Position numbers and translations under genes: made by a program. Of a stretch of DNA of 53,880 nt, positions 2,237-51,510 are shown piece by piece. Under the pieces are notes generated by a model, which saw only the letters and a list, made by a program, of their open reading frames with translations, was not told the origin of the DNA and searched no databases. This DNA comes from a virus (Duplodnaviria; Heunggongvirae; Uroviricota; Caudoviricetes), in IMG/VR virus record IMGVR_UViG_2617270943_000003, positions 1 to 53,880 of that record; one strand, given 5' to 3'. The stretch's first letter is position 1. Each line of letters starts with the position of its first letter.

Positions 2237-2668
2237 TCATTGCCCCCAGCGTTTTATAAATTCCTCGTTTAATTTCGTATCACCCGACCATTGAACATCA
2301 TGTTCAGCACCGAACGAGTAGATCAATTCGATTAGTTCGCTGAATTCTGATTTACTCATTCGACTTGTAGACGTTCCCAATACAACGAAGCCTGATTTAT
2401 CTAGGTTAGGGACTACGCCATATTTCTTAAGTCCGGCAGTGAATACCGCTTTCCAGTCTTCCGGCGACAGCTTTTTACCGTACCAATTAACCTGATCGCT
2501 AATGTCGGTCAATAGCGCCCAAAGCAACGCATTTTGGCTTAGCGAGCGGGTTTTCTCCTGGATGGTGATTATCAGCGGGCTTTTGCTATCAGGCTGGATC
2601 TCTCTTATCTGCCTGATAGCATTTTCTTTCACGGCGTCGTTGACTATCTCAAATCTAATTTGCCGCAT
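2237..2668 (-). CDS. ninB: NinB / Orf-family recombination protein
   Basis: MRQIRFEIVNDAVKENAIRQI...TIQEKTRSLSQNALLWALLTDISDQVNWYGKKLSPEDWK...VVPNL...FVVLGTSTSRMSKSEF matches lambda NinB nearly position for position; start taken at the internal Met. Confidence 0.85.
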   Translation of the reverse strand: MRQIRFEIVNDAVKENAIRQIREIQPDSKSPLIITIQEKTRSLSQNALLWALLTDISDQVNWYGKKLSPEDWKAVFTAGLKKYGVVPNLDKSGFVVLGTSTSRMSKSEFSELIELIYSFGAEHDVQWSGDTKLNEEFIKRWGQ

Positions 2669-2882
2669 TATTTCTTTTCGCCTTATTTTTCGCTTTGTAT
2701 TCCTGCCAACTTTCCCAGCGCGCATTTATAATTGCATCAAGACTAATCAATTTTGAAGAAGTCATAAAAGCGCCTTTTAAATATTTCATATCAACCGTAA
2801 CAGGTTTATCAGGATCACCGCCGCGCTTGTATTCCGCGATCGTGCTTAAATCCTCCACGGTCAATTCTAAATCCTTGTTCAT
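2655..2882 (-). CDS. Hypothetical protein
   Basis: 75 aa ORF in the leftward operon, small overlap with ninB start. Confidence 0.4.
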   Translation of the reverse strand: MNKDLELTVEDLSTIAEYKRGGDPDKPVTVDMKYLKGAFMTSSKLISLDAIINARWESWQEYKAKNKAKRNNAAN

Positions 2883-2891
2883 AATTCCCCC

Positions 2892-3098
2892 TTACACAAT
2901 CCGCATTGTGTTTCGTAATTCACCGCGCAACGCCCGTAATGCATCGCGCATTGGCACAAAAACCCGGTTAAATTTTACGTGTTTATATTTCCGCATCAGT
3001 GGCGGTGTATACACCTTTGCGTCGTATACTTCCCACGGATAATAAACGCGCGTATCGTCGACAAACGTTTCAACTGAATAAAAGATTACCCGTCTCAT
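2892..3098 (-). CDS. Hypothetical protein
   Basis: 68 aa ORF, stop/start overlap with the upstream gene suggests an operon. Confidence 0.4.
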   Translation of the reverse strand: MRRVIFYSVETFVDDTRVYYPWEVYDAKVYTPPLMRKYKHVKFNRVFVPMRDALRALRGELRNTMRIV

Positions 3099-44363: not shown

Positions 44364-45068
44364 ATGCGCAATATTCCGAGAGAGATGATTATTGATTCCG
44401 TCGATGCCGGAGTCGGCGCGGTCATTGACTTATTTGAACTGGACCTGACTCCACTTGGTGGCGATGTTGTCCGCTTCCATTCCGGCGCTAATGGCTATTA
44501 CGGGAATGTTATCTGGAAGGGTATCGCTTACAACAGCTACCCGATCGAAGTTAGCGGCTTCGAAATGAAAAACGAGGGGGTATACGCGCGGCCTCAAATG
44601 GCAGTAGCCAATATTGGCGGGCTTATTACCGGAATGAACAACGACTTTAACGACCTGCGCGGCATGAAAGTAACCCGCCACCAGGTGGAGGTGAAATACC
44701 TGGACGCTGTTAACTTCCCTAACGGCAATCCAGATGCAGATCCTTCTATTGAGGCGGTATCTGTTTACGTTGTCGAGGCAATGAGTGAAGAAACGGCGGA
44801 GCAAGTACAGTACGAACTATCTACGCCAGTAGACGCAGACAAGGCTGTTATACCTGGGCGCACCATCCTTGCTGACGTTTGCCAGTGGCAATATCGCGGA
44901 GACGGTTGCGGATATAGCGGCGGCCCGGTAGCGACTGATAAAGATGCGCCGACCAGTGATCCAACATTGGATAAATGCAGCCACCGCCTCAGCGGTTGTC
45001 GCTTGCGCTTCCCGCGCCCGAATCCGTTACCAATTTCATGTTTCCCCGGATCAAGCAAGGTGGGCTAA
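44364..45068 (+). CDS. L: Minor tail protein L
   Basis: Collinear with lambda gpL (LDAVNFPNGNP...RGDGCGYSGGPVATD...DKCSHRLSGC). Confidence 0.8.
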   Translation: MRNIPREMIIDSVDAGVGAVIDLFELDLTPLGGDVVRFHSGANGYYGNVIWKGIAYNSYPIEVSGFEMKNEGVYARPQMAVANIGGLITGMNNDFNDLRGMKVTRHQVEVKYLDAVNFPNGNPDADPSIEAVSVYVVEAMSEETAEQVQYELSTPVDADKAVIPGRTILADVCQWQYRGDGCGYSGGPVATDKDAPTSDPTLDKCSHRLSGCRLRFPRPNPLPISCFPGSSKVG

Positions 45069-45070
45069 TT

Positions 45071-45802
45071 ATGGCACTTGAAGACAAAATGGTTCGTTAT
45101 GCCGCCGCTCACCCTCGCGAGGAAGTTTGCGGACTGGTGATAGATAACGATTATTTTTACCCGTGCTTAAACGTGTCTGAAACGCCCTACAACAGCTTTA
45201 AAATTTCGCCGGACGATTACATCAAGGCTGACGAATTGGGCGTCATAACCGCCGTTTTCCACTCTCACGTTGAAGATATTCCGGTATTGTCGGCACTAGA
45301 TCGACAACAACAGGTTATTTCCGGCCTTCCGTGGTTTTTATGTTCCGGTGGCAGGGTTAGAAAATTCCGCCCGGTAGCGCACCTGTTAGGCCGAAAATTT
45401 GAGCACGGGAAAACAGACTGCTACGCGCTTTTCCGGGACGCCTATCACCTTTGCGGCGTGGGTCTGCCGGACTTCGAGCGCCTTGATGGGTGGTGGTTGC
45501 GTGGTGAAAACCTGTATTTAAAAAACTTGCCGCTAAACGGGTTTTATCAGGTTGACGCGCAAAGCATCCAGCCGGGTGACGTGATTATTCGCCAGCCGTT
45601 CAAGGGTGCTGATCCATGTCACGCGATGATTTACCTGGGTGATAACACTGTTTTGCATCATGACAATGCCGGACTGTTAAGTCGCCGCGAGCAGATGCGG
45701 CCCGCTTATGTTCGACAAACGCATTCAATATGGAGATCTGACAAATGCTCAAATTTAGATTTACGGGCAATCTTCGAAGATATTACGGCAAAGTGTGTTT
45801 AA
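45071..45802 (+). CDS. K: Tail assembly protein K (MPN/JAMM + NlpC/P60-like)
   Basis: VITAVFHSHVED (JAMM-like HxH) and a C-terminal Cys/His region; position after L. Confidence 0.75.
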   Translation: MALEDKMVRYAAAHPREEVCGLVIDNDYFYPCLNVSETPYNSFKISPDDYIKADELGVITAVFHSHVEDIPVLSALDRQQQVISGLPWFLCSGGRVRKFRPVAHLLGRKFEHGKTDCYALFRDAYHLCGVGLPDFERLDGWWLRGENLYLKNLPLNGFYQVDAQSIQPGDVIIRQPFKGADPCHAMIYLGDNTVLHHDNAGLLSRREQMRPAYVRQTHSIWRSDKCSNLDLRAIFEDITAKCV

Positions 45803-46275
45803 ACGTTGATACGCCAGCGCAAGGACTTCGCTTATTGACTGCGCAGAATCAGGAATTCAAAAAAGCGTTTTTAAACACACCATCACGATTACGGATTGCG
45901 GGAAAGGATTATAACGAAAAAACAGCGCCAGCTGCGGTGAACAGCAAATACCCGGACGGGACCACTGTAATTATTGCGCCAGTAGTGGAAGGTGGGATCG
46001 CTGGTATCGGTGTAATTGGCTGGATCATGATTGGTATTTCAGTAGTTAGCGTTGCGTTTTCCCTCTTTATGTCTCGCAACATGAAGGTAAAAACATCAGC
46101 AGAAAGCGCACAGGATAACACCATAACGAATAACACCTACACCAGCGTTGAAAACAAGGTAGGTCAGGGTAGACCAGTGCCAATCCTATTGGGCGAAATG
46201 AAAATAGGTTCAAACGTCGGATCGTTAGGCATAGACACAAGTAATAACAAAGACGCCTTAGACGTTGTAAGTTGA
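45745..46275 (+). CDS. I: Tail assembly protein I
   Basis: Gly-rich hydrophobic segment and C-terminus LLGEMKIGSNV similar to lambda gpI; overlaps the K 3' end. Confidence 0.7.
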   Translation: MLKFRFTGNLRRYYGKVCLNVDTPAQGLRLLTAQNQEFKKAFLNTPSRLRIAGKDYNEKTAPAAVNSKYPDGTTVIIAPVVEGGIAGIGVIGWIMIGISVVSVAFSLFMSRNMKVKTSAESAQDNTITNNTYTSVENKVGQGRPVPILLGEMKIGSNVGSLGIDTSNNKDALDVVS

Positions 46276-46289
46276 CAGGAGAAAAAGCC

Positions 46290-49200
46290 ATGAGTAGCGG
46301 CGGCGGCAAAGCCAAAACACCAACATTGCTAAACGATAACCTGTATCATAAACAGTTTTACCGTGTTTTAGATATCCTTAGTGAAGGGCCGATATACGGT
46401 CCAGTAAACCAGACCGCGCCATTAAACAGCGTAATGCTTAATGACACCCCTGTTACTGACACCAACGGGAATACATCCATTCCTGGTATTAGTATAGCGT
46501 GGCGCAACGGTACGGTTGACCAATCGCCAATCAATGGTTTTAACGCTATCGAATCAACCGTTATTGTCAACGCTCAGGTAACTCGCGACACACCAATAAT
46601 CAGGACCGTTTCAGATCCAAACGTAACCCGCGTCAGATTAAATGTTGGCGTTGATGCTCTCGTTCAGTCAGATGATCAGGGCAATCAATACAACACATCC
46701 GTTATGTTAATGGTTGATGTTAAGCCATCATCATCATCAACTTGGACACTGGTTAAGGATATTACCATTGGCCCTGGTAAACAGAGCGGTGAATACTTAG
46801 AAGCTCACATTATCAACGCGCCGGATGAAAAACCGTTTGATATTCGCGTTCGCCGCATAACGGCAGACAGCAACAGCGATCTACTTCGCAATGATACGCG
46901 GTGGAGCAGTTACAGCGAAATCATCGACGATAATTTGTCTTATCCTCACACCGCTGTAGCTGGAGCGGTGATTGATCATGATCAGTACACTGACACGCCT
47001 ACCCGCGCTTATCATCTGCGCGGCCTGATTGTTGACGTGCCGGACAACTACAACCCTGAAGCGCGCACGTATTCCGGTTTATGGCTTGGTGGATTTAAAA
47101 AGGCGTACACCAATAACCCTGCCTGGCTTTTCCGGTATTTGATTAAAAATGAACGCTTTGGCCTTGCACGACAGGCTGGTTATATTGACGTTGATGACGG
47201 CGCTTTATACGTGCTTTCTCAATACTGCGACCAGTTGGTTGATGATGGCTACGGTGGCCTTGAGCCTCGCATGACGCTTAACGCTTACATCACAGAGCAA
47301 ATGAGCGCCCGCGACTTACTGGACAATATCGCCGGGATGTTCAGGGGTATCGCGTTATGGGACGGGCAACGCCTTACCGTGATGATTGATGCACCACAAG
47401 ACCCGATCGCCACCATTACAAATGCAAACGTCGTTGATGGTGCATTCACCCGTTCGAGCCTTGCCCGCGCGGAGTGCTACAACGCCGTGATTGTATCCTG
47501 GACCGATCCGGGTAACGGTTGGGAACAGTCAAAAGAATACGTTTCTGACGATGAACTAATCGCCCGCGACGGCTACAACGAAACCACGCTAGAGGCGTTC
47601 GGGTGCACGTCTCGCGGACAGGCTTATCGCGCTGGTAAATGGCTGATCGAAACAGCAAAACGCGAGCCGTCAAAATTCACGTTTAAAATGGCCCGTGACG
47701 CCATTCACTTTACACCAGGGGATATCATCGAGATCCTCGACAATAACCGCGCTGGCGCTCGCTTAGGCGGTCGTATCGTGGCGAACAATGGCAAAGTGAT
47801 AACGGTCGATAAGGTTGATTCTGAATATATCGCGGCTGGTGACACCATCAGCTTACTTGATAGCGATGGTAAATTTAAAAAACACCAGATCACCGGAGTT
47901 AACGGAAACAATATTACCCTTGCTGCGGCCCCTGCATGGATTCGCAATGGCACTGTTTTTGCTGTATCGACTGAAGCAGCAAAACCCGTTTTATGTAGGA
48001 TCACCAGCGTAGCAGAAACAGAAAATAACAGCGTATACACTATCGAAGCCGCACAGCACGACCCTAACAAACAGGCCGTAGTTGATGAAGGCGCAGTCTT
48101 CGAAATCAACAACGACACGCTTAATCACTTCCGCGTACCTAACATTGAAAATCTGAAGGTGTTAAACGTTGGTTCTGAAACGGTTCAATGCCGCGCAACA
48201 TGGGAAACGCAGACAACAACGCATCGTCTTACCTTTGAAATCCGCGTATATAATGCAGACGGTCGCGTGGTGGCAAGTTATGAAACCACGAATTACCGCT
48301 ATGAATTTTATGGCCTCGACGCAGGCAGCTACACGCTTGGTATTCGCGGTCGTAATGACACTGGCATGAAGGGCGCAGAAAGTATTGTGGATCTGGTTAT
48401 TGGTGCGCCAGCGGCCCCCATCGGCGTTAATTGGGTGCCTGGTGTTTTTCAGGCAACGGTGTACCCGATCAGCAAAACAACCCTAACCACTGATACAGCA
48501 TACGAGTTCTACTACTCCGGGGAAAATCAGATCACAGATCCATCAAAAGTAACCACATCAGCGCAGTTTACCGGGCGCGGGTATCAGTGGACTTTTGGCG
48601 GAATGAACACGGGCCATACCTATTACGTTTATGTCCGTACACGTAACGCTTTTGGTGTGTCAGATTTCGTTGAGGCATCAGGCAAACCAACTGAAAACTT
48701 CGATGAAATTAGCGACTACGTCACCAAAGACGTGATTAATTCAGAACAGTTTAAGGGGATGATTGGCGACATTAAAGATCTTGGCGACCGCGCTGATCTT
48801 ATAGAGAGCGCTACGGATGACCTAAAAACTGCAACTGACGACCTTAAGACCGCAACTGATAATCTTACCAATATCACAAACGGCCTAAGAACTGATACTG
48901 ACGACCTTATTGCAGAAACAGGGTCAATAAAAGTTGACACAGATACGCTTAAAAAAGACACGGAAGATCTTTATAAAAAAGTTCAGGAAAGCGCCGATGA
49001 AATAGGTAAACATGAGGTAAGAATAGACTCGTTAGAGGTATCAAGCGAAAACGTCGGTAATGAACTGGCACAGACAAAAGCAAGCCTACAAAACGCATCG
49101 CTTGCTCTTATTAATAATTCGCTTGCTCAAACTAACACCAGAAGAACGCTTACAGCTCAGATCAAAAATGTAGATTCAGAAACTAAGGCGCAAATAGATC

Positions 49201-51230
49201 GCATTGATAACGTGATTGTCAGTGAAAAAGAAGCAAGAGCGGAGGCAATGGAGACAATTACCGCCGAAATCGACACGATGGATAAAAACATCAAAGGTGA
49301 GATTGCGCGCGTAGATACTGCCATTGCCAATGAGAGCCAGGCAAGGGCTGATGCCATCAGTGAAGTTAGCGCAAACATTGACGCACTTGATAGTAAAACA
49401 GATGCCAGTGTTAATCGTCTTGATCAAGCTATCGCAGATGAGGCCAGCGCACGCGCACAGGCTATCAGCAATGTCAATGCGAGCATGACAAATCTTGATA
49501 ACAAGGTTACAAGCAACGTTTCTAGACTTGATCAGGCAATAGCTGACGAATCAAGCGCAAGAGCAGAAGCCGATGATCAGTTAATAGCAAAAAGCGAAAA
49601 ACTTGATGGTGATCTCGCTATGGCAAGGGCAAGCCTACAAAACGCTTCGCTTGCTCTCATCAATAATACATTGTCTCAGACAAAGACAAGGCGCACTCTC
49701 ACAGCGGAGTTCAAACGCGGACAAAGTGAAACTAAAGCACAAATTGACCGTATTGATAATGTCATTACTGACGAAAAACAGGCAACAGCGGAAGCGTTTG
49801 AAACTATCACAGCAGAAATGAACACGATGGACTCAAACATTAAAGGAGAAATATCACGATTAGATAAAGTGATCGCGACTGAAACGCAAGCAAGATCTGA
49901 AGCTATAAGTAGTGTTAATGCAAGCATAAAGACGCTAGAAAGCGACACTGAAGCCAGCGTTAACCGTCTTGATCAGGCAGTTGCTGACGAGGCCAGCGCC
50001 CGCGCACAAGCTATCAGCGGAGTAAATGCAAGCATCAGCACGCTTGATAGCAAGGTTACAAGCAATGTGACCCGTATCGACAAAGCTATTGCAGATGAGA
50101 CGCAGGCCCGCACAGACGCAATAAGCAACCTTAACTCATCGCTTACCAGTACGATTAATTCGAAAGTATCTGAAGTATCAACAGCACTTTCTACGCATGA
50201 AGCATCAAGCGCGGAAAAATTCAGCCAGATCTCAGCGTCTTTCGAAGCTGTAAACTCAAGCATCACGGAATGGTCGCAGACCATGACAACTGCGGACGAG
50301 GCATTATCAACCAAAATTGATCAGCTTACAGTAACAGTTAACGGGAACACCACGGCGATCGAGACAACATCTAAAGCGTTAACCGACTTCAAAGGTAATG
50401 TTGATGCGTCATGGTCAATCAAGATTGCCACCGACAACAACGGCAGAAAATACGCAACAGGTATGTCGCTTGGCCTGACTGGTAGCGGGACTAACGTTCA
50501 ATCGCAGTGTATTTTCCTCGTTGACCGCTTCGTGTTAATGACTGCGGCAAACGGAACATATCAGACGCCTTTCTATGTTACTAATGGTGCAATGTATGTG
50601 CGCGAAGCGTTTATTAAAGACGCATCAATAGGAACGGCTAAAATTGCAGATGCAGCCATTACTATGGCTAAAATTGTTAATGAAATAAAATCATCAAACT
50701 ATGTTGCTGGTTCTAAAGGTTGGAGGATAACACAAAGCGGATCATCAGAATTTAACGATGTTGTGGTAAGGGGCGAAATCCATGCTAATAGCGGTAAATT
50801 CAAAGGAACTGTAGAAGCTACATCCTTTGTTGGTGATGTCGCATCTACTAACGTTATACCGCAATCATCATTCCCTGGGACAAGTACAAGCGGATCTCGA
50901 TCTGTTACGAAGACGTATAAAGATTCATCATCAAGCTCGCTTTCGAAAACAGTTTTCGTAATGATTCCTTACCATCTTACTTATTATACTTATTCAGGAT
51001 CATCAACAATAAAAGTAACAATTAATATTAATGGCAATAGCAAAACATATAACGTAGTAAGGGCGGCATCATCGCCTCAATTCGGATTTACGGTATCACA
51101 TTGCGTAACTGGGATTACTGCTCAAACAGTTACGATAAAAATAACAGAGGAATACACCAACACCGGAACATCAGCAGAAAGAAGGCCAGGTCTTGCACTT
51201 GTTACAAGAAGCTCAGGATCATGGTCATAA
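46290..51230 (+). CDS. J: Host specificity / central tail fibre protein J
   Basis: N-terminal ~1000 aa collinear with lambda J (FYRVLDILSEGPIYGPVN...YHLRGLIVDVPDNYNP...AFGCTSRGQAYRAGKWLIET); the C-terminal part contains extended coiled-coil repeats. ATG at 46290 with AGGAGAAAAAG upstream. Confidence 0.9.
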   Translation: MSSGGGKAKTPTLLNDNLYHKQFYRVLDILSEGPIYGPVNQTAPLNSVMLNDTPVTDTNGNTSIPGISIAWRNGTVDQSPINGFNAIESTVIVNAQVTRDTPIIRTVSDPNVTRVRLNVGVDALVQSDDQGNQYNTSVMLMVDVKPSSSSTWTLVKDITIGPGKQSGEYLEAHIINAPDEKPFDIRVRRITADSNSDLLRNDTRWSSYSEIIDDNLSYPHTAVAGAVIDHDQYTDTPTRAYHLRGLIVDVPDNYNPEARTYSGLWLGGFKKAYTNNPAWLFRYLIKNERFGLARQAGYIDVDDGALYVLSQYCDQLVDDGYGGLEPRMTLNAYITEQMSARDLLDNIAGMFRGIALWDGQRLTVMIDAPQDPIATITNANVVDGAFTRSSLARAECYNAVIVSWTDPGNGWEQSKEYVSDDELIARDGYNETTLEAFGCTSRGQAYRAGKWLIETAKREPSKFTFKMARDAIHFTPGDIIEILDNNRAGARLGGRIVANNGKVITVDKVDSEYIAAGDTISLLDSDGKFKKHQITGVNGNNITLAAAPAWIRNGTVFAVSTEAAKPVLCRITSVAETENNSVYTIEAAQHDPNKQAVVDEGAVFEINNDTLNHFRVPNIENLKVLNVGSETVQCRATWETQTTTHRLTFEIRVYNADGRVVASYETTNYRYEFYGLDAGSYTLGIRGRNDTGMKGAESIVDLVIGAPAAPIGVNWVPGVFQATVYPISKTTLTTDTAYEFYYSGENQITDPSKVTTSAQFTGRGYQWTFGGMNTGHTYYVYVRTRNAFGVSDFVEASGKPTENFDEISDYVTKDVINSEQFKGMIGDIKDLGDRADLIESATDDLKTATDDLKTATDNLTNITNGLRTDTDDLIAETGSIKVDTDTLKKDTEDLYKKVQESADEIGKHEVRIDSLEVSSENVGNELAQTKASLQNASLALINNSLAQTNTRRTLTAQIKNVDSETKAQIDRIDNVIVSEKEARAEAMETITAEIDTMDKNIKGEIARVDTAIANESQARADAISEVSANIDALDSKTDASVNRLDQAIADEASARAQAISNVNASMTNLDNKVTSNVSRLDQAIADESSARAEADDQLIAKSEKLDGDLAMARASLQNASLALINNTLSQTKTRRTLTAEFKRGQSETKAQIDRIDNVITDEKQATAEAFETITAEMNTMDSNIKGEISRLDKVIATETQARSEAISSVNASIKTLESDTEASVNRLDQAVADEASARAQAISGVNASISTLDSKVTSNVTRIDKAIADETQARTDAISNLNSSLTSTINSKVSEVSTALSTHEASSAEKFSQISASFEAVNSSITEWSQTMTTADEALSTKIDQLTVTVNGNTTAIETTSKALTDFKGNVDASWSIKIATDNNGRKYATGMSLGLTGSGTNVQSQCIFLVDRFVLMTAANGTYQTPFYVTNGAMYVREAFIKDASIGTAKIADAAITMAKIVNEIKSSNYVAGSKGWRITQSGSSEFNDVVVRGEIHANSGKFKGTVEATSFVGDVASTNVIPQSSFPGTSTSGSRSVTKTYKDSSSSSLSKTVFVMIPYHLTYYTYSGSSTIKVTININGNSKTYNVVRAASSPQFGFTVSHCVTGITAQTVTIKITEEYTNTGTSAERRPGLALVTRSSGSWS
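49082..50110 (+). repeat. Intragenic tandem duplication (~549-bp period) within J
   Basis: Two diverged copies starting AAGCCTACAAAACGC at 49082 and 49631, encoding repeated NASLQNASLALINN...AQIDRIDNVI...ARA.AIS.VNAS blocks. Confidence 0.7.
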
Positions 51231-51237
51231 AAAATAA

Positions 51238-51262
51238 CCCCGCTTCGCGCGGGGTTTTCTTT
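51238..51262. terminator. Bidirectional rho-independent terminator between J and the convergent lipoprotein gene
   Basis: CCCCGC-TTCGC-GCGGGG hairpin with A-run upstream and T-run downstream. Confidence 0.65.
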
Positions 51263-51510
51263 TAGTAGTTAGCTACACAATTCGACGGGCTACCTATGCG
51301 GCGCATGTTGTGATCGAGTTCATGACACCATTGACCAGTATACGGAAGTTTTTCAGTGTCATAGACGAGATGACCGTCAGCATCATAGACAATTTCTTGT
51401 GGGATTACTCCGCTATTTGGCAGGTTATGCAATGCAGCTTCTTTATCAACAGCGCAACCAGTAAGAGCAACAGCCGCAGCGAATAAGACCACTTTGAACA
51501 TGTTTTTCAT
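51262..51510 (-). CDS. Small lipoprotein, Cor-like candidate
   Basis: Signal peptide with lipobox AVALTGC; 82 aa; opposite-strand gene between J and the tail fibre gene, the usual place for cor. Confidence 0.4.
   Translation of the reverse strand: MKNMFKVVLFAAAVALTGCAVDKEAALHNLPNSGVIPQEIVYDADGHLVYDTEKLPYTGQWCHELDHNMRRIGSPSNCVANY

Follow-up and report, generated by a model that had tools for sequence, protein, structure and literature searches.

The energy source for envelope breach by non-contractile phage tails is an open question. In F-type pyocins, a segment of the central fibre has been found as a three-stranded coiled coil before ejection in three independent structures (PMC13455828, PMC12874032, bioRxiv 10.64898/2026.02.24.707460). 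He et al. (2026) reported that 163 residues of the F7 pyocin fibre turn into a triangular beta-prism upon target binding and that glutamine at the prism-corner alanines abolishes pyocin killing; such a switch was predicted for 21 of 24 phage fibres, HK639 included (PMC12874032). In the mEp021-group (mEpimmI) phages of E. coli, the J proteins have been described as carrying "repeats of different length (positions 950-1,475)" (PMC11893012, section 3.6). Here, we describe the J-like central tail fibre or tip attachment gene (46290..51230, plus strand) of the virus record IMGVR_UViG_2617270943_000003, all 53,880 nt of which (positions 1 to 53,880) were analyzed and are referred to as the window. 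The segment of this J that is equivalent to the pyocin coiled coil contains a long repeat array, in which one whole module was duplicated long ago. The best explanation for this array, to which we give a slightly better than even chance, is a modular helical shaft between the last fibronectin type III (FNIII) domain and the beta tip, with the part made of H heads and R units (see below) most likely being a metastable fold switch.

J and its insertion relative to lambda gpJ

The gene, recognized from the list of open reading frames (ORFs), Pfam and a match to lambda gpJ, encodes a protein of 1646 aa when read from the ATG at 46290, from which the aa positions of J are counted here. J is a lambda-type tip attachment or central fibre protein, and genes with Phage_tail_L and NlpC/P60-JAB domains were found upstream of it (ORF list and Pfam). 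The program-made ORF starts at a TTG at 46272, 18 nt upstream of ATG 46290; all relatives are annotated with an MSSGGG start, and ATG 46290 is more likely to be the start of J.

Five Pfam domains were found in J, all above the cut-off. The first four, FNIII-A_GpJ, Phage-tail_3, Ig_J and Ig_J_second, reach to about residue 811 and the fifth, Phage_Tail_Tip, covers residues 1356-1503. The lambda-like hub with its FNIII and Ig domains (aa 1-811; 46290..48722, plus strand; delimited by the Pfam matches up to Ig_J_second) is collinear with lambda gpJ residues 1-857. Lambda gpJ (PDB 8iyk) matches J with an E-value of 1.6e-184, and the alignment covers residues 7-856, in agreement with an earlier reading of this DNA (hereafter, the sequence-only reading) in which the N-terminal ~800 residues were called lambda-J-like. 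Since the alignment resumes only at residue ~1357, the intervening stretch is a ~520-aa insertion relative to lambda J that separates the last FNIII domain from the tip domain, and the interval marked in the sequence-only reading (48700-50320) matches this insertion almost exactly. Searches of Pfam and PHROGs with aa 817-1356 gave no named family and only weak matches to tail fibre and tape measure proteins.

Downstream of the insertion, the Phage_Tail_Tip or central straight fibre beta domain (aa 1356-1503; 50355..50798, plus strand; PF09327, E 1.6e-37) was matched by Foldseek to the central fibre of lambda gpJ (8xcj/8xci). It is followed by a variable C-terminal part (aa 1504-1646; 50799..51227, plus strand), which was delimited by identity to relatives and is presumed to be the receptor-binding domain. 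The last 140 aa of J are 84% identical to MagusPhagus and 19-31% identical to the LamB- or OmpA-using mEp phages.

A modular array with an anciently duplicated unit

Self-comparison of J showed the best similarity at offsets of 183, 36, 72, 219 and 147 aa, and the protein written out in rows of 36 aa shows a regular repeat. With hidden Markov models (HMMs) built from the window, a 36-aa unit, R, was found eight times (E-values of 1e-17 to 1e-21) and the array was resolved as H-R4-H-R4, with H being a 41-aa head. The R consensus is V-x-R-L-D-x-A-I-A-D-E-x-x-A-R-x-x-A-I-S-x-V-N-A-S-I-x-x-L-x-x-K-x-x-S-x and the H consensus is xxxASLQNASLALINNxLxQTxTRRTLTA....SETKAQ. The eight R units account for the motif IDRIDNVI...EAR.EA...VNASI..LDSK, which the sequence-only reading had seen to recur in this region.

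At a higher level, self-alignment and HMM mapping identified two copies of a 549-bp/183-aa unit, both on the plus strand, namely copy A (aa 919-1101; 49044..49592) and copy B (aa 1102-1284; 49593..50141). Head H1 of copy A (aa 928-968; 49071-49193) is followed by four 36-aa R units (aa 969-1112), and head H2 of copy B (aa 1111-1151; 49620-49742) is likewise followed by four R units (aa 1152-1295; 49743-50174). Self-blastn of the J gene gave a single off-diagonal match of 477 nt (window 49043-49519 versus 49592-50068) with 71% identity, an E-value of 2e-66 and an offset of exactly 549 nt. The protein alignment of aa 919-1098 to aa 1102-1281 is gapless, with 69% identity and 84% positives (E 1e-83), and the two unit copies are in frame and ungapped at 68-71% DNA identity. 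The ~549-bp tandem duplication proposed in the sequence-only reading is therefore real; its starts at 49082 and 49631 are in register, on a 17-nt exact run at 49080/49629, but lie ~38 nt inside the true boundaries at 49044 and 49593. This run is the longest that the copies have in common. Divergence between the copies hides the 549-nt and 108-nt periods from Tandem Repeats Finder (TRF), which reports a 21-nt repeat only, and whole-protein self-blastp of J gave the identity match only, so that the copies were compared after splitting the protein.

Copies A and B differ at ~30% of their nucleotides, with 40% identity at third codon positions, saturated synonymous divergence (dS) and a ratio of non-synonymous to synonymous divergence (dN/dS) of 0.07-0.14. 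By comparison with single-copy phages, to which the H+R1 block of each copy is 82-83% identical, identity to the other copy is only 75%. Since the copies are this diverged, with saturated dS, and each of them is nearer to the modules of other phages than to its partner, the repeat is not an assembly artefact, and a recent duplication is ruled out. Moreover, both copies are present in an independent IMG/VR contig (IMGVR_UViG_3300045988_106735, hereafter L010; J compared at L010 2719-7638), with 1 substitution across window positions 49179-50290. The 549-bp repeat represents an ancient duplication of one whole H-R4 module, kept under purifying selection.

The duplicated modules are flanked by two further helical parts of the shaft. 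Upstream, a heptad-periodic segment (aa ~825-927; 48762..49070, plus strand) has a hydrophobic periodicity of 3.51 that exceeds the 99th percentile of shuffled sequences and includes a short tandem heptad repeat, TDDLKTA x2.5, with a 21-nt period (48813..48866, plus strand; TDDLKTATDDLKTATDNL), for which TRF reports 2.0 copies at 48819-48859. These are the short repeats that the sequence-only reading had placed near 48818-48870. L010 lacks exactly 21 nt, or one heptad, at window 48809-48829 as a clean indel, and MagusPhagus lacks 21 aa at J aa 860-880. Downstream, a conserved helical tail (aa 1296-1343; 50175..50318, plus strand) with a periodicity of 3.58 leads into the tip domain; it ends where a helix predicted by AlphaFold2 (AF2) ends, at aa 1343, is 95-100% identical to MagusPhagus and is homologous to J of HK97 and HK639.

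No proline is present in the 521-aa shaft stretch. The hydrophobic periodicity changes from 3.51 in the heptad part to 3.59-3.60 in units A and B, with a power of 4.2 compared to a 99th-percentile shuffle value of ~1.5. A period of 36/10, or 3.6, corresponds to an 18/5 (7+11) pattern, and a helical bundle with this pattern should be almost straight. A modular, helix-periodic and proline-free shaft array is, on these sequence features, a probable description of the region, and the extended coiled-coil-type stretch of the sequence-only reading is borne out by the missing prolines, by a periodicity far above shuffles and by the helix that AF2 predicts from a shallow alignment. In the virion, three chains would assemble into a trimeric coiled coil that is nearly straight and has the 18/5 periodicity (7+11 residues); we infer the trimer by analogy, as the J hub is trimeric and so are the F-pyocin shafts that have been solved. 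If fully extended, such a shaft would measure ~78 nm (0.15 nm for each of 519 aa) and would keep the receptor-binding tip off the tail hub.

Array variation among mEp021-group phages

The window represents an mEp021-group (mEpimmI) siphophage, a coliphage. Megablast against 50,697 phage records gave close DNA matches to only 7 phages, all mEp021-group members including MagusPhagus, at 84-87% identity. The synteny of the tail module is shared with mEpimmI members, and the lipoprotein encoded downstream of J is 91-99% identical to that of 5 members. Among complete E. coli genomes, no close relative of the array was found, the best match having 83% identity over 75% of the query.

The relatives differ considerably in their arrays. 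MagusPhagus and mEp515 carry H-R5, mEp013 carries H-R4-H-R1, mEp010 carries H-R5-H-R5, and mEp021, mEp044 and mEp554 carry H-R8-H-R5. A scan of IMG/VR added 21 further loci, with arrays from HR4 to HR9HR3, and the arrays seen are HR4, HR5, HR6, HR8, HR4HR1, HR4HR4, HR5HR4, HR5HR5, HR7HR5, HR8HR3/4/5 and HR9HR3. The HR4HR4 array with a head spacing of 183 aa was seen only in the window and in L010. Across relatives, 8 of them isolates and some 20 from IMG/VR, J has 4-13 R units, 1 or 2 H heads and a length of 1393-1828 aa, which fits the variation in fibre length suggested by the sequence-only reading, with fibre length deduced from repeat number. The spacings between H1 and H2 (183, 190, 226, 298, 334 and 370 aa) differ by steps of 36 or 7 aa, and the lengths of the heptad segment (117/138/152 and 118/125/132/139/153 aa) differ by multiples of 7 only. 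Compared to MagusPhagus, the window J has an additional 21 aa and an additional 147 aa, the latter corresponding to one H and three R.

Among the close homologues in databases, many are partial proteins from short contigs, and assemblies possibly break in repeat arrays. The family PF28217.1 appears in precomputed annotations of fragments (P0001, P0002 and P0005) that include the repeat region and gave no match in the Pfam scan of the window J; a family covering the shaft may have been defined recently.

The receptor has been reported to be LamB for mEp010, mEp013, mEp044 and mEp554 and OmpA for mEp021 and mEp515 (PMC11893012). Even though mEp021 and mEp515 have a common C-terminus and use the same receptor, they carry 13 and 5 R units, respectively, while the LamB users mEp044 and mEp554 have an array identical in layout to that of mEp021. 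Therefore, repeat number does not set receptor specificity, a role that the sequence-only reading had considered for the repeats; array size is uncoupled from receptor type, and specificity tracks the separate C-terminal domain. Among J proteins with the C-terminal type of the window, TRSSGSW, the number of R units ranges from 4 to 9.

Comparison with L010 also provided information on how arrays change. Divergence from L010 is about 10% over window positions 46290-49178, drops to the single substitution over 49179-50290, which includes both repeat copies, rises again to about 9% over 50291-50636 and falls to 1 substitution over 50637-51230. The left junction of the first near-identical block is the H1/R1 boundary. 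As read from the sequences, this alternation of diverged and near-identical blocks indicates recent recombination between co-occurring mEpimmI phages, and the mosaicism shows that phages exchange the array and the receptor-binding end as cassettes. Array variation is thus a matter of whole 36-aa or 7-aa steps over evolutionary time and of cassette exchange between phages. Ongoing homologous recombination between copies A and B was rejected as a source of this variation, since they have no more than 17 nt of exact identity; contrary to the recombination-prone character attributed to them by the sequence-only reading, the copies are poor substrates today.

Evidence for and against a fold switch

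The proposed mechanism starts from an H/R part of ~413 aa that would be metastable, of the kind described for F-type pyocin central fibres. Upon receptor binding, the H/R part would refold to a triangular beta-prism, with each 36-aa repeat becoming one beta-hairpin, and a helix of ~62 nm would shorten to a prism of ~11 nm (about 23 strands at 0.48 nm). The shortening would bring the tail tip up to the membrane and contribute to opening the membrane, and the number of repeats would set reach and stroke rather than specificity. Taken by itself, the fold switch of the shaft is a tentative proposal, suggested by structure models and by analogy with the pyocins. A still slightly more tentative extension is that the H/R array represents a modular, copy-number-polymorphic fold-switch spring, of which the window would hold two complete switch modules, ~2.5 times the F7 pyocin switch. 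While the sequence-only reading was right on the duplication, the helical stretch and the length variation, it missed both the 36-aa substructure and the possibility of a fold switch.

Several features of the repeats would be explained by such a switch. The motif SxSxxMxxLxS, which He et al. published for switching fibres with alternating orientation and one instance per strand (PMC12874032), occurs 26 times in 540 aa when counted in forward and reverse orientation, compared to 6.9 +/- 2.6 times in shuffles, and each 36-aa repeat contains one reverse instance (positions 35-9) and one forward instance (positions 14-24), which coincide with two predicted strands. Conservation was scored over 115 distinct R units, in which the helical core is formed by positions 1, 4, 8, 11, 15, 19, 22, 26, 29 and 33. 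E11 (100% conserved) and R15 (89%) form an i/i+4 pair at the core, as do Glu1039 and Arg1043 in F7. Small residues facing off the core are also highly conserved (A14 100%, A24 95%, S/A35 96%, A7 and A9 at least 84%), whereas the other exposed positions vary freely, with an entropy of >2 bits. These near-invariant outward small residues are not explained by a simple spacer, while corners of a prism would explain them.

Structure prediction gave two different folds for the same 419 aa (aa 1102-1520). With an alignment of 33 sequences, the AF2 monomer model is one helix over aa 1103-1343, with a predicted local distance difference test (pLDDT) score >90 and a predicted template modelling (pTM) score of 0.29. 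With an alignment of 88 sequences, the model has ~17 antiparallel strands of 14-16 residues, with a mean pLDDT of 82 and a pTM of 0.65; it is a meander of hairpins to which every 36-aa repeat contributes two strands, with the reverse and forward instances of the motif at the strand centres. The homologues in the 88-sequence alignment have an alpha-type periodicity of 3.5-3.66 and are largely proline-free; therefore, the beta model does not stem from obvious beta sequences in the alignment. The best match of the beta model in the PDB is the lambda gpJ fibre, and in BFVD it is matched best by J-like fibres, while a Foldseek search with the helical model was uninformative for the shaft.

A number of observations weigh against the fold switch. 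Since SxSxxMxxLxS overlaps any alanine-rich pattern with a period of 3.6, its enrichment and the helical periodicity are not independent observations. The change of the AF2 model with alignment depth, seen in monomer models only, could be a prediction artefact. Searches of the PDB with the H-R module profile did not recover the F-pyocin fibre at E<=1; besides T1 gp33, they returned generic coiled coils only (coronavirus spike HR1 and SNAREs), and the single-sequence match to residues 911-1084 of the F2 pyocin (25vf) is marginal (E 0.007). Lambda and T5 are reported not to use a large fold switch (PMC12874032). Transmission electron microscopy (TEM) of mEpimmI phages has shown tails of ~130 nm, with no mention of a terminal fibre of 60-110 nm (PMC11893012). 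Finally, phages with 5 and 13 R units and a common receptor are both viable, which suggests that length is only loosely constrained and which a passive spacer fits equally well.

The main rival to the fold switch is indeed a passive spacer, in which a stable trimeric coiled-coil rod sets how far the tip projects (e.g., through lipopolysaccharide or capsule) with no conformational change. The periodicity and the helical AF2 model suit a rod, and the wide tolerance for length favours it, as 4-13 R units occur among viable phages, same-receptor pairs included, and in the wider family (2787 proteins, E<=0.001) the last FNIII domain is separated from the tip domain by anything from 80 to >2400 aa. 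A rod of this type does not account for outward small residues and a core E11/R15 pair that are near invariant across 115 diverged units, or for the turn of the AF2 model into a confident beta meander with a deeper alignment, and the shaft is homologous to fibres predicted to switch. Taking both sides into consideration, the passive spacer seems rather unlikely, though it deserves to be taken seriously.

A role of the H heads in docking of side fibres is compatible with the other readings. Each head follows a glycine-containing segment (G923 and G1107), and the heads could be kinks for side-fibre attachment, with two heads providing two sites. In F-pyocins, the side fibres dock where the shaft has a glycine kink (PMC13455828; bioRxiv 10.64898/2026.02.24.707460), a side-fibre gene lies downstream of J, and H is the only element of the array other than R, present once or twice. 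In the AF2 models, though, H2 is a continuous helix or strand with no break, and one-head and two-head phages carry similar side-fibre genes, so that this role appears improbable.

Even less probable is a constitutive beta-prism, which would extend the lambda-like beta central straight fibre in the virion from the outset and would make the helical periodicity incidental. The deeper-alignment model is all beta, with the higher pTM (0.65 versus 0.29), and resembles the lambda gpJ fibre, and a prism would agree with the lack of any mention of a very long terminal fibre in the published TEM (PMC11893012). Both the query and its homologues, however, have an alpha-type 3.6 pattern with much weaker power at a period of ~2, and the F-pyocin equivalent is a coiled coil before ejection in all three structures (PMC13455828, PMC12874032, bioRxiv 10.64898/2026.02.24.707460). 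As for a repeat collapsed or expanded during assembly, which the sequence-only reading had named as a possible refutation, the general risk posed by repeats and the many partial homologues on short contigs leave it hardly any probability against two copies that differ by ~30%, share no more than 17 nt of exact identity and keep the frame intact, and against the same HR4HR4 array in L010.

Neighbouring genes

The K-like tail assembly gene upstream of J (44975-45802, plus strand) encodes domains of the NlpC/P60 and JAB types. In its long form, this ORF shares sequence with the end of the L gene, and relatives differ in whether the long or the short start is annotated. In mEp021 (L005) and mEp515 (L006), an HNH endonuclease gene is located between I and J (2437-3003 of each record), whereas neither the window nor any other member has this gene. 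For the ORFs antisense to the repeats (e.g., 49676-49948 and 49973-50314), the sole support is an open frame on the strand opposite a long gene.

Downstream of J, the minus strand encodes a lipoprotein of 82 aa (51262-51510), which shares 94% identity with Lpp010 and 99% with its MagusPhagus counterpart. Lpp010 acts in superinfection exclusion and blocks phages that use LamB (PMC11893012). Over its last 140 aa, J is only ~30% identical to J of LamB users, and, judging from these identities, the exclusion lipoprotein and the receptor-binding end of J may be unmatched in the window. The side-fibre gene (51688-53880, plus strand) encodes 730 aa, of which the first 108 aa match the N-terminal anchor of Klebsiella phage depolymerases (7vyv, E 4e-23), and includes an intramolecular chaperone domain, Peptidase_S74, at the C-terminus. 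The stop codon of this gene is exactly where the window ends, and in L010 ~277 bp separate the sequences that match the end and the start of the window.

Implications and comparison with known systems

The main value of these findings lies in tractable E. coli phages whose shafts form a natural series of different lengths. If the switch exists, the mEpimmI phages would offer cultivable and tractable E. coli phages in which switch length varies naturally in steps of whole hairpins. If the array acts as a spring, mEp515 with 5 and mEp021 with 13 R units, which have the same receptor-binding end, would constitute a natural test of whether energy and stroke scale with length. If the shaft is only a spacer, the variation would represent ordinary variation in the length of tail-fibre shafts, useful for the annotation of J and for engineering of length without altering specificity.

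Shaft homologues are also found in Klebsiella and T1-like phages. Residues 856-1020 of T1 gp33 match the H-R module profile (E 1.3e-7) and hold 33-aa repeats of a type like the R units of J; the gp33 residues homologous to the shaft are not resolved in the T1 cryo-EM structure (PMC11945409). The J proteins of HK97, HK022, HK639 and mEpX1 have one H, one R and the tail, and blastp of HK639/HK97 J gave an E-value of 1.5e-15 over H+R. Unlike the window J, the T1- and HK97-type shafts are short (~150-200 aa) and without duplication of the module. Lambda gpJ has the hub, FNIII domains and central straight fibre in common with the window J, but only ~30-40 residues where the window J has ~520.

The closest relatives are the J proteins of mEp021, mEp010, mEp013, mEp044, mEp515, mEp554 and MagusPhagus, with 84-87% DNA identity to the window J, a common gene order (L, K, I, J, lipoprotein, side fibre) and the heptad segment, H, R and tail all in common. 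The C-terminal domain of the window J is of the MagusPhagus type and not of the LamB or OmpA types. The published description of the mEpimmI phages gives their repeats without unit structure, periodicity or structural interpretation (PMC11893012).

The F-pyocin central fibre is a homologue of J with a collinear hub and FNIII domains (25vf, E 1e-119). Its helical shaft starts at a similar place (residue ~820-920) and continues into a beta-prism tip, and the "spine" segment of the F7 fibre corresponds in position to the heptad segment of J. The S/M/L motif and buried Glu-Arg pairs are common to both proteins, and for both, AlphaFold gives either fold depending on alignment depth. By comparison, the switch region would comprise ~413 aa in the window J and comprises 163 aa in the pyocin, and the window J has regular 36-aa repeats, a periodicity of 3.6 throughout and a duplicated module, whereas the F-pyocin has heptads with one stutter. 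Repeats in mEpimmI J proteins were thus already known, as were coiled-coil shafts and the fold switch in F-pyocins, with predictions for other phages; the window J is set apart by the regular 36-aa unit of hairpin size, the duplicated module and a candidate switch-type region 2.5 times as long as the characterized one.

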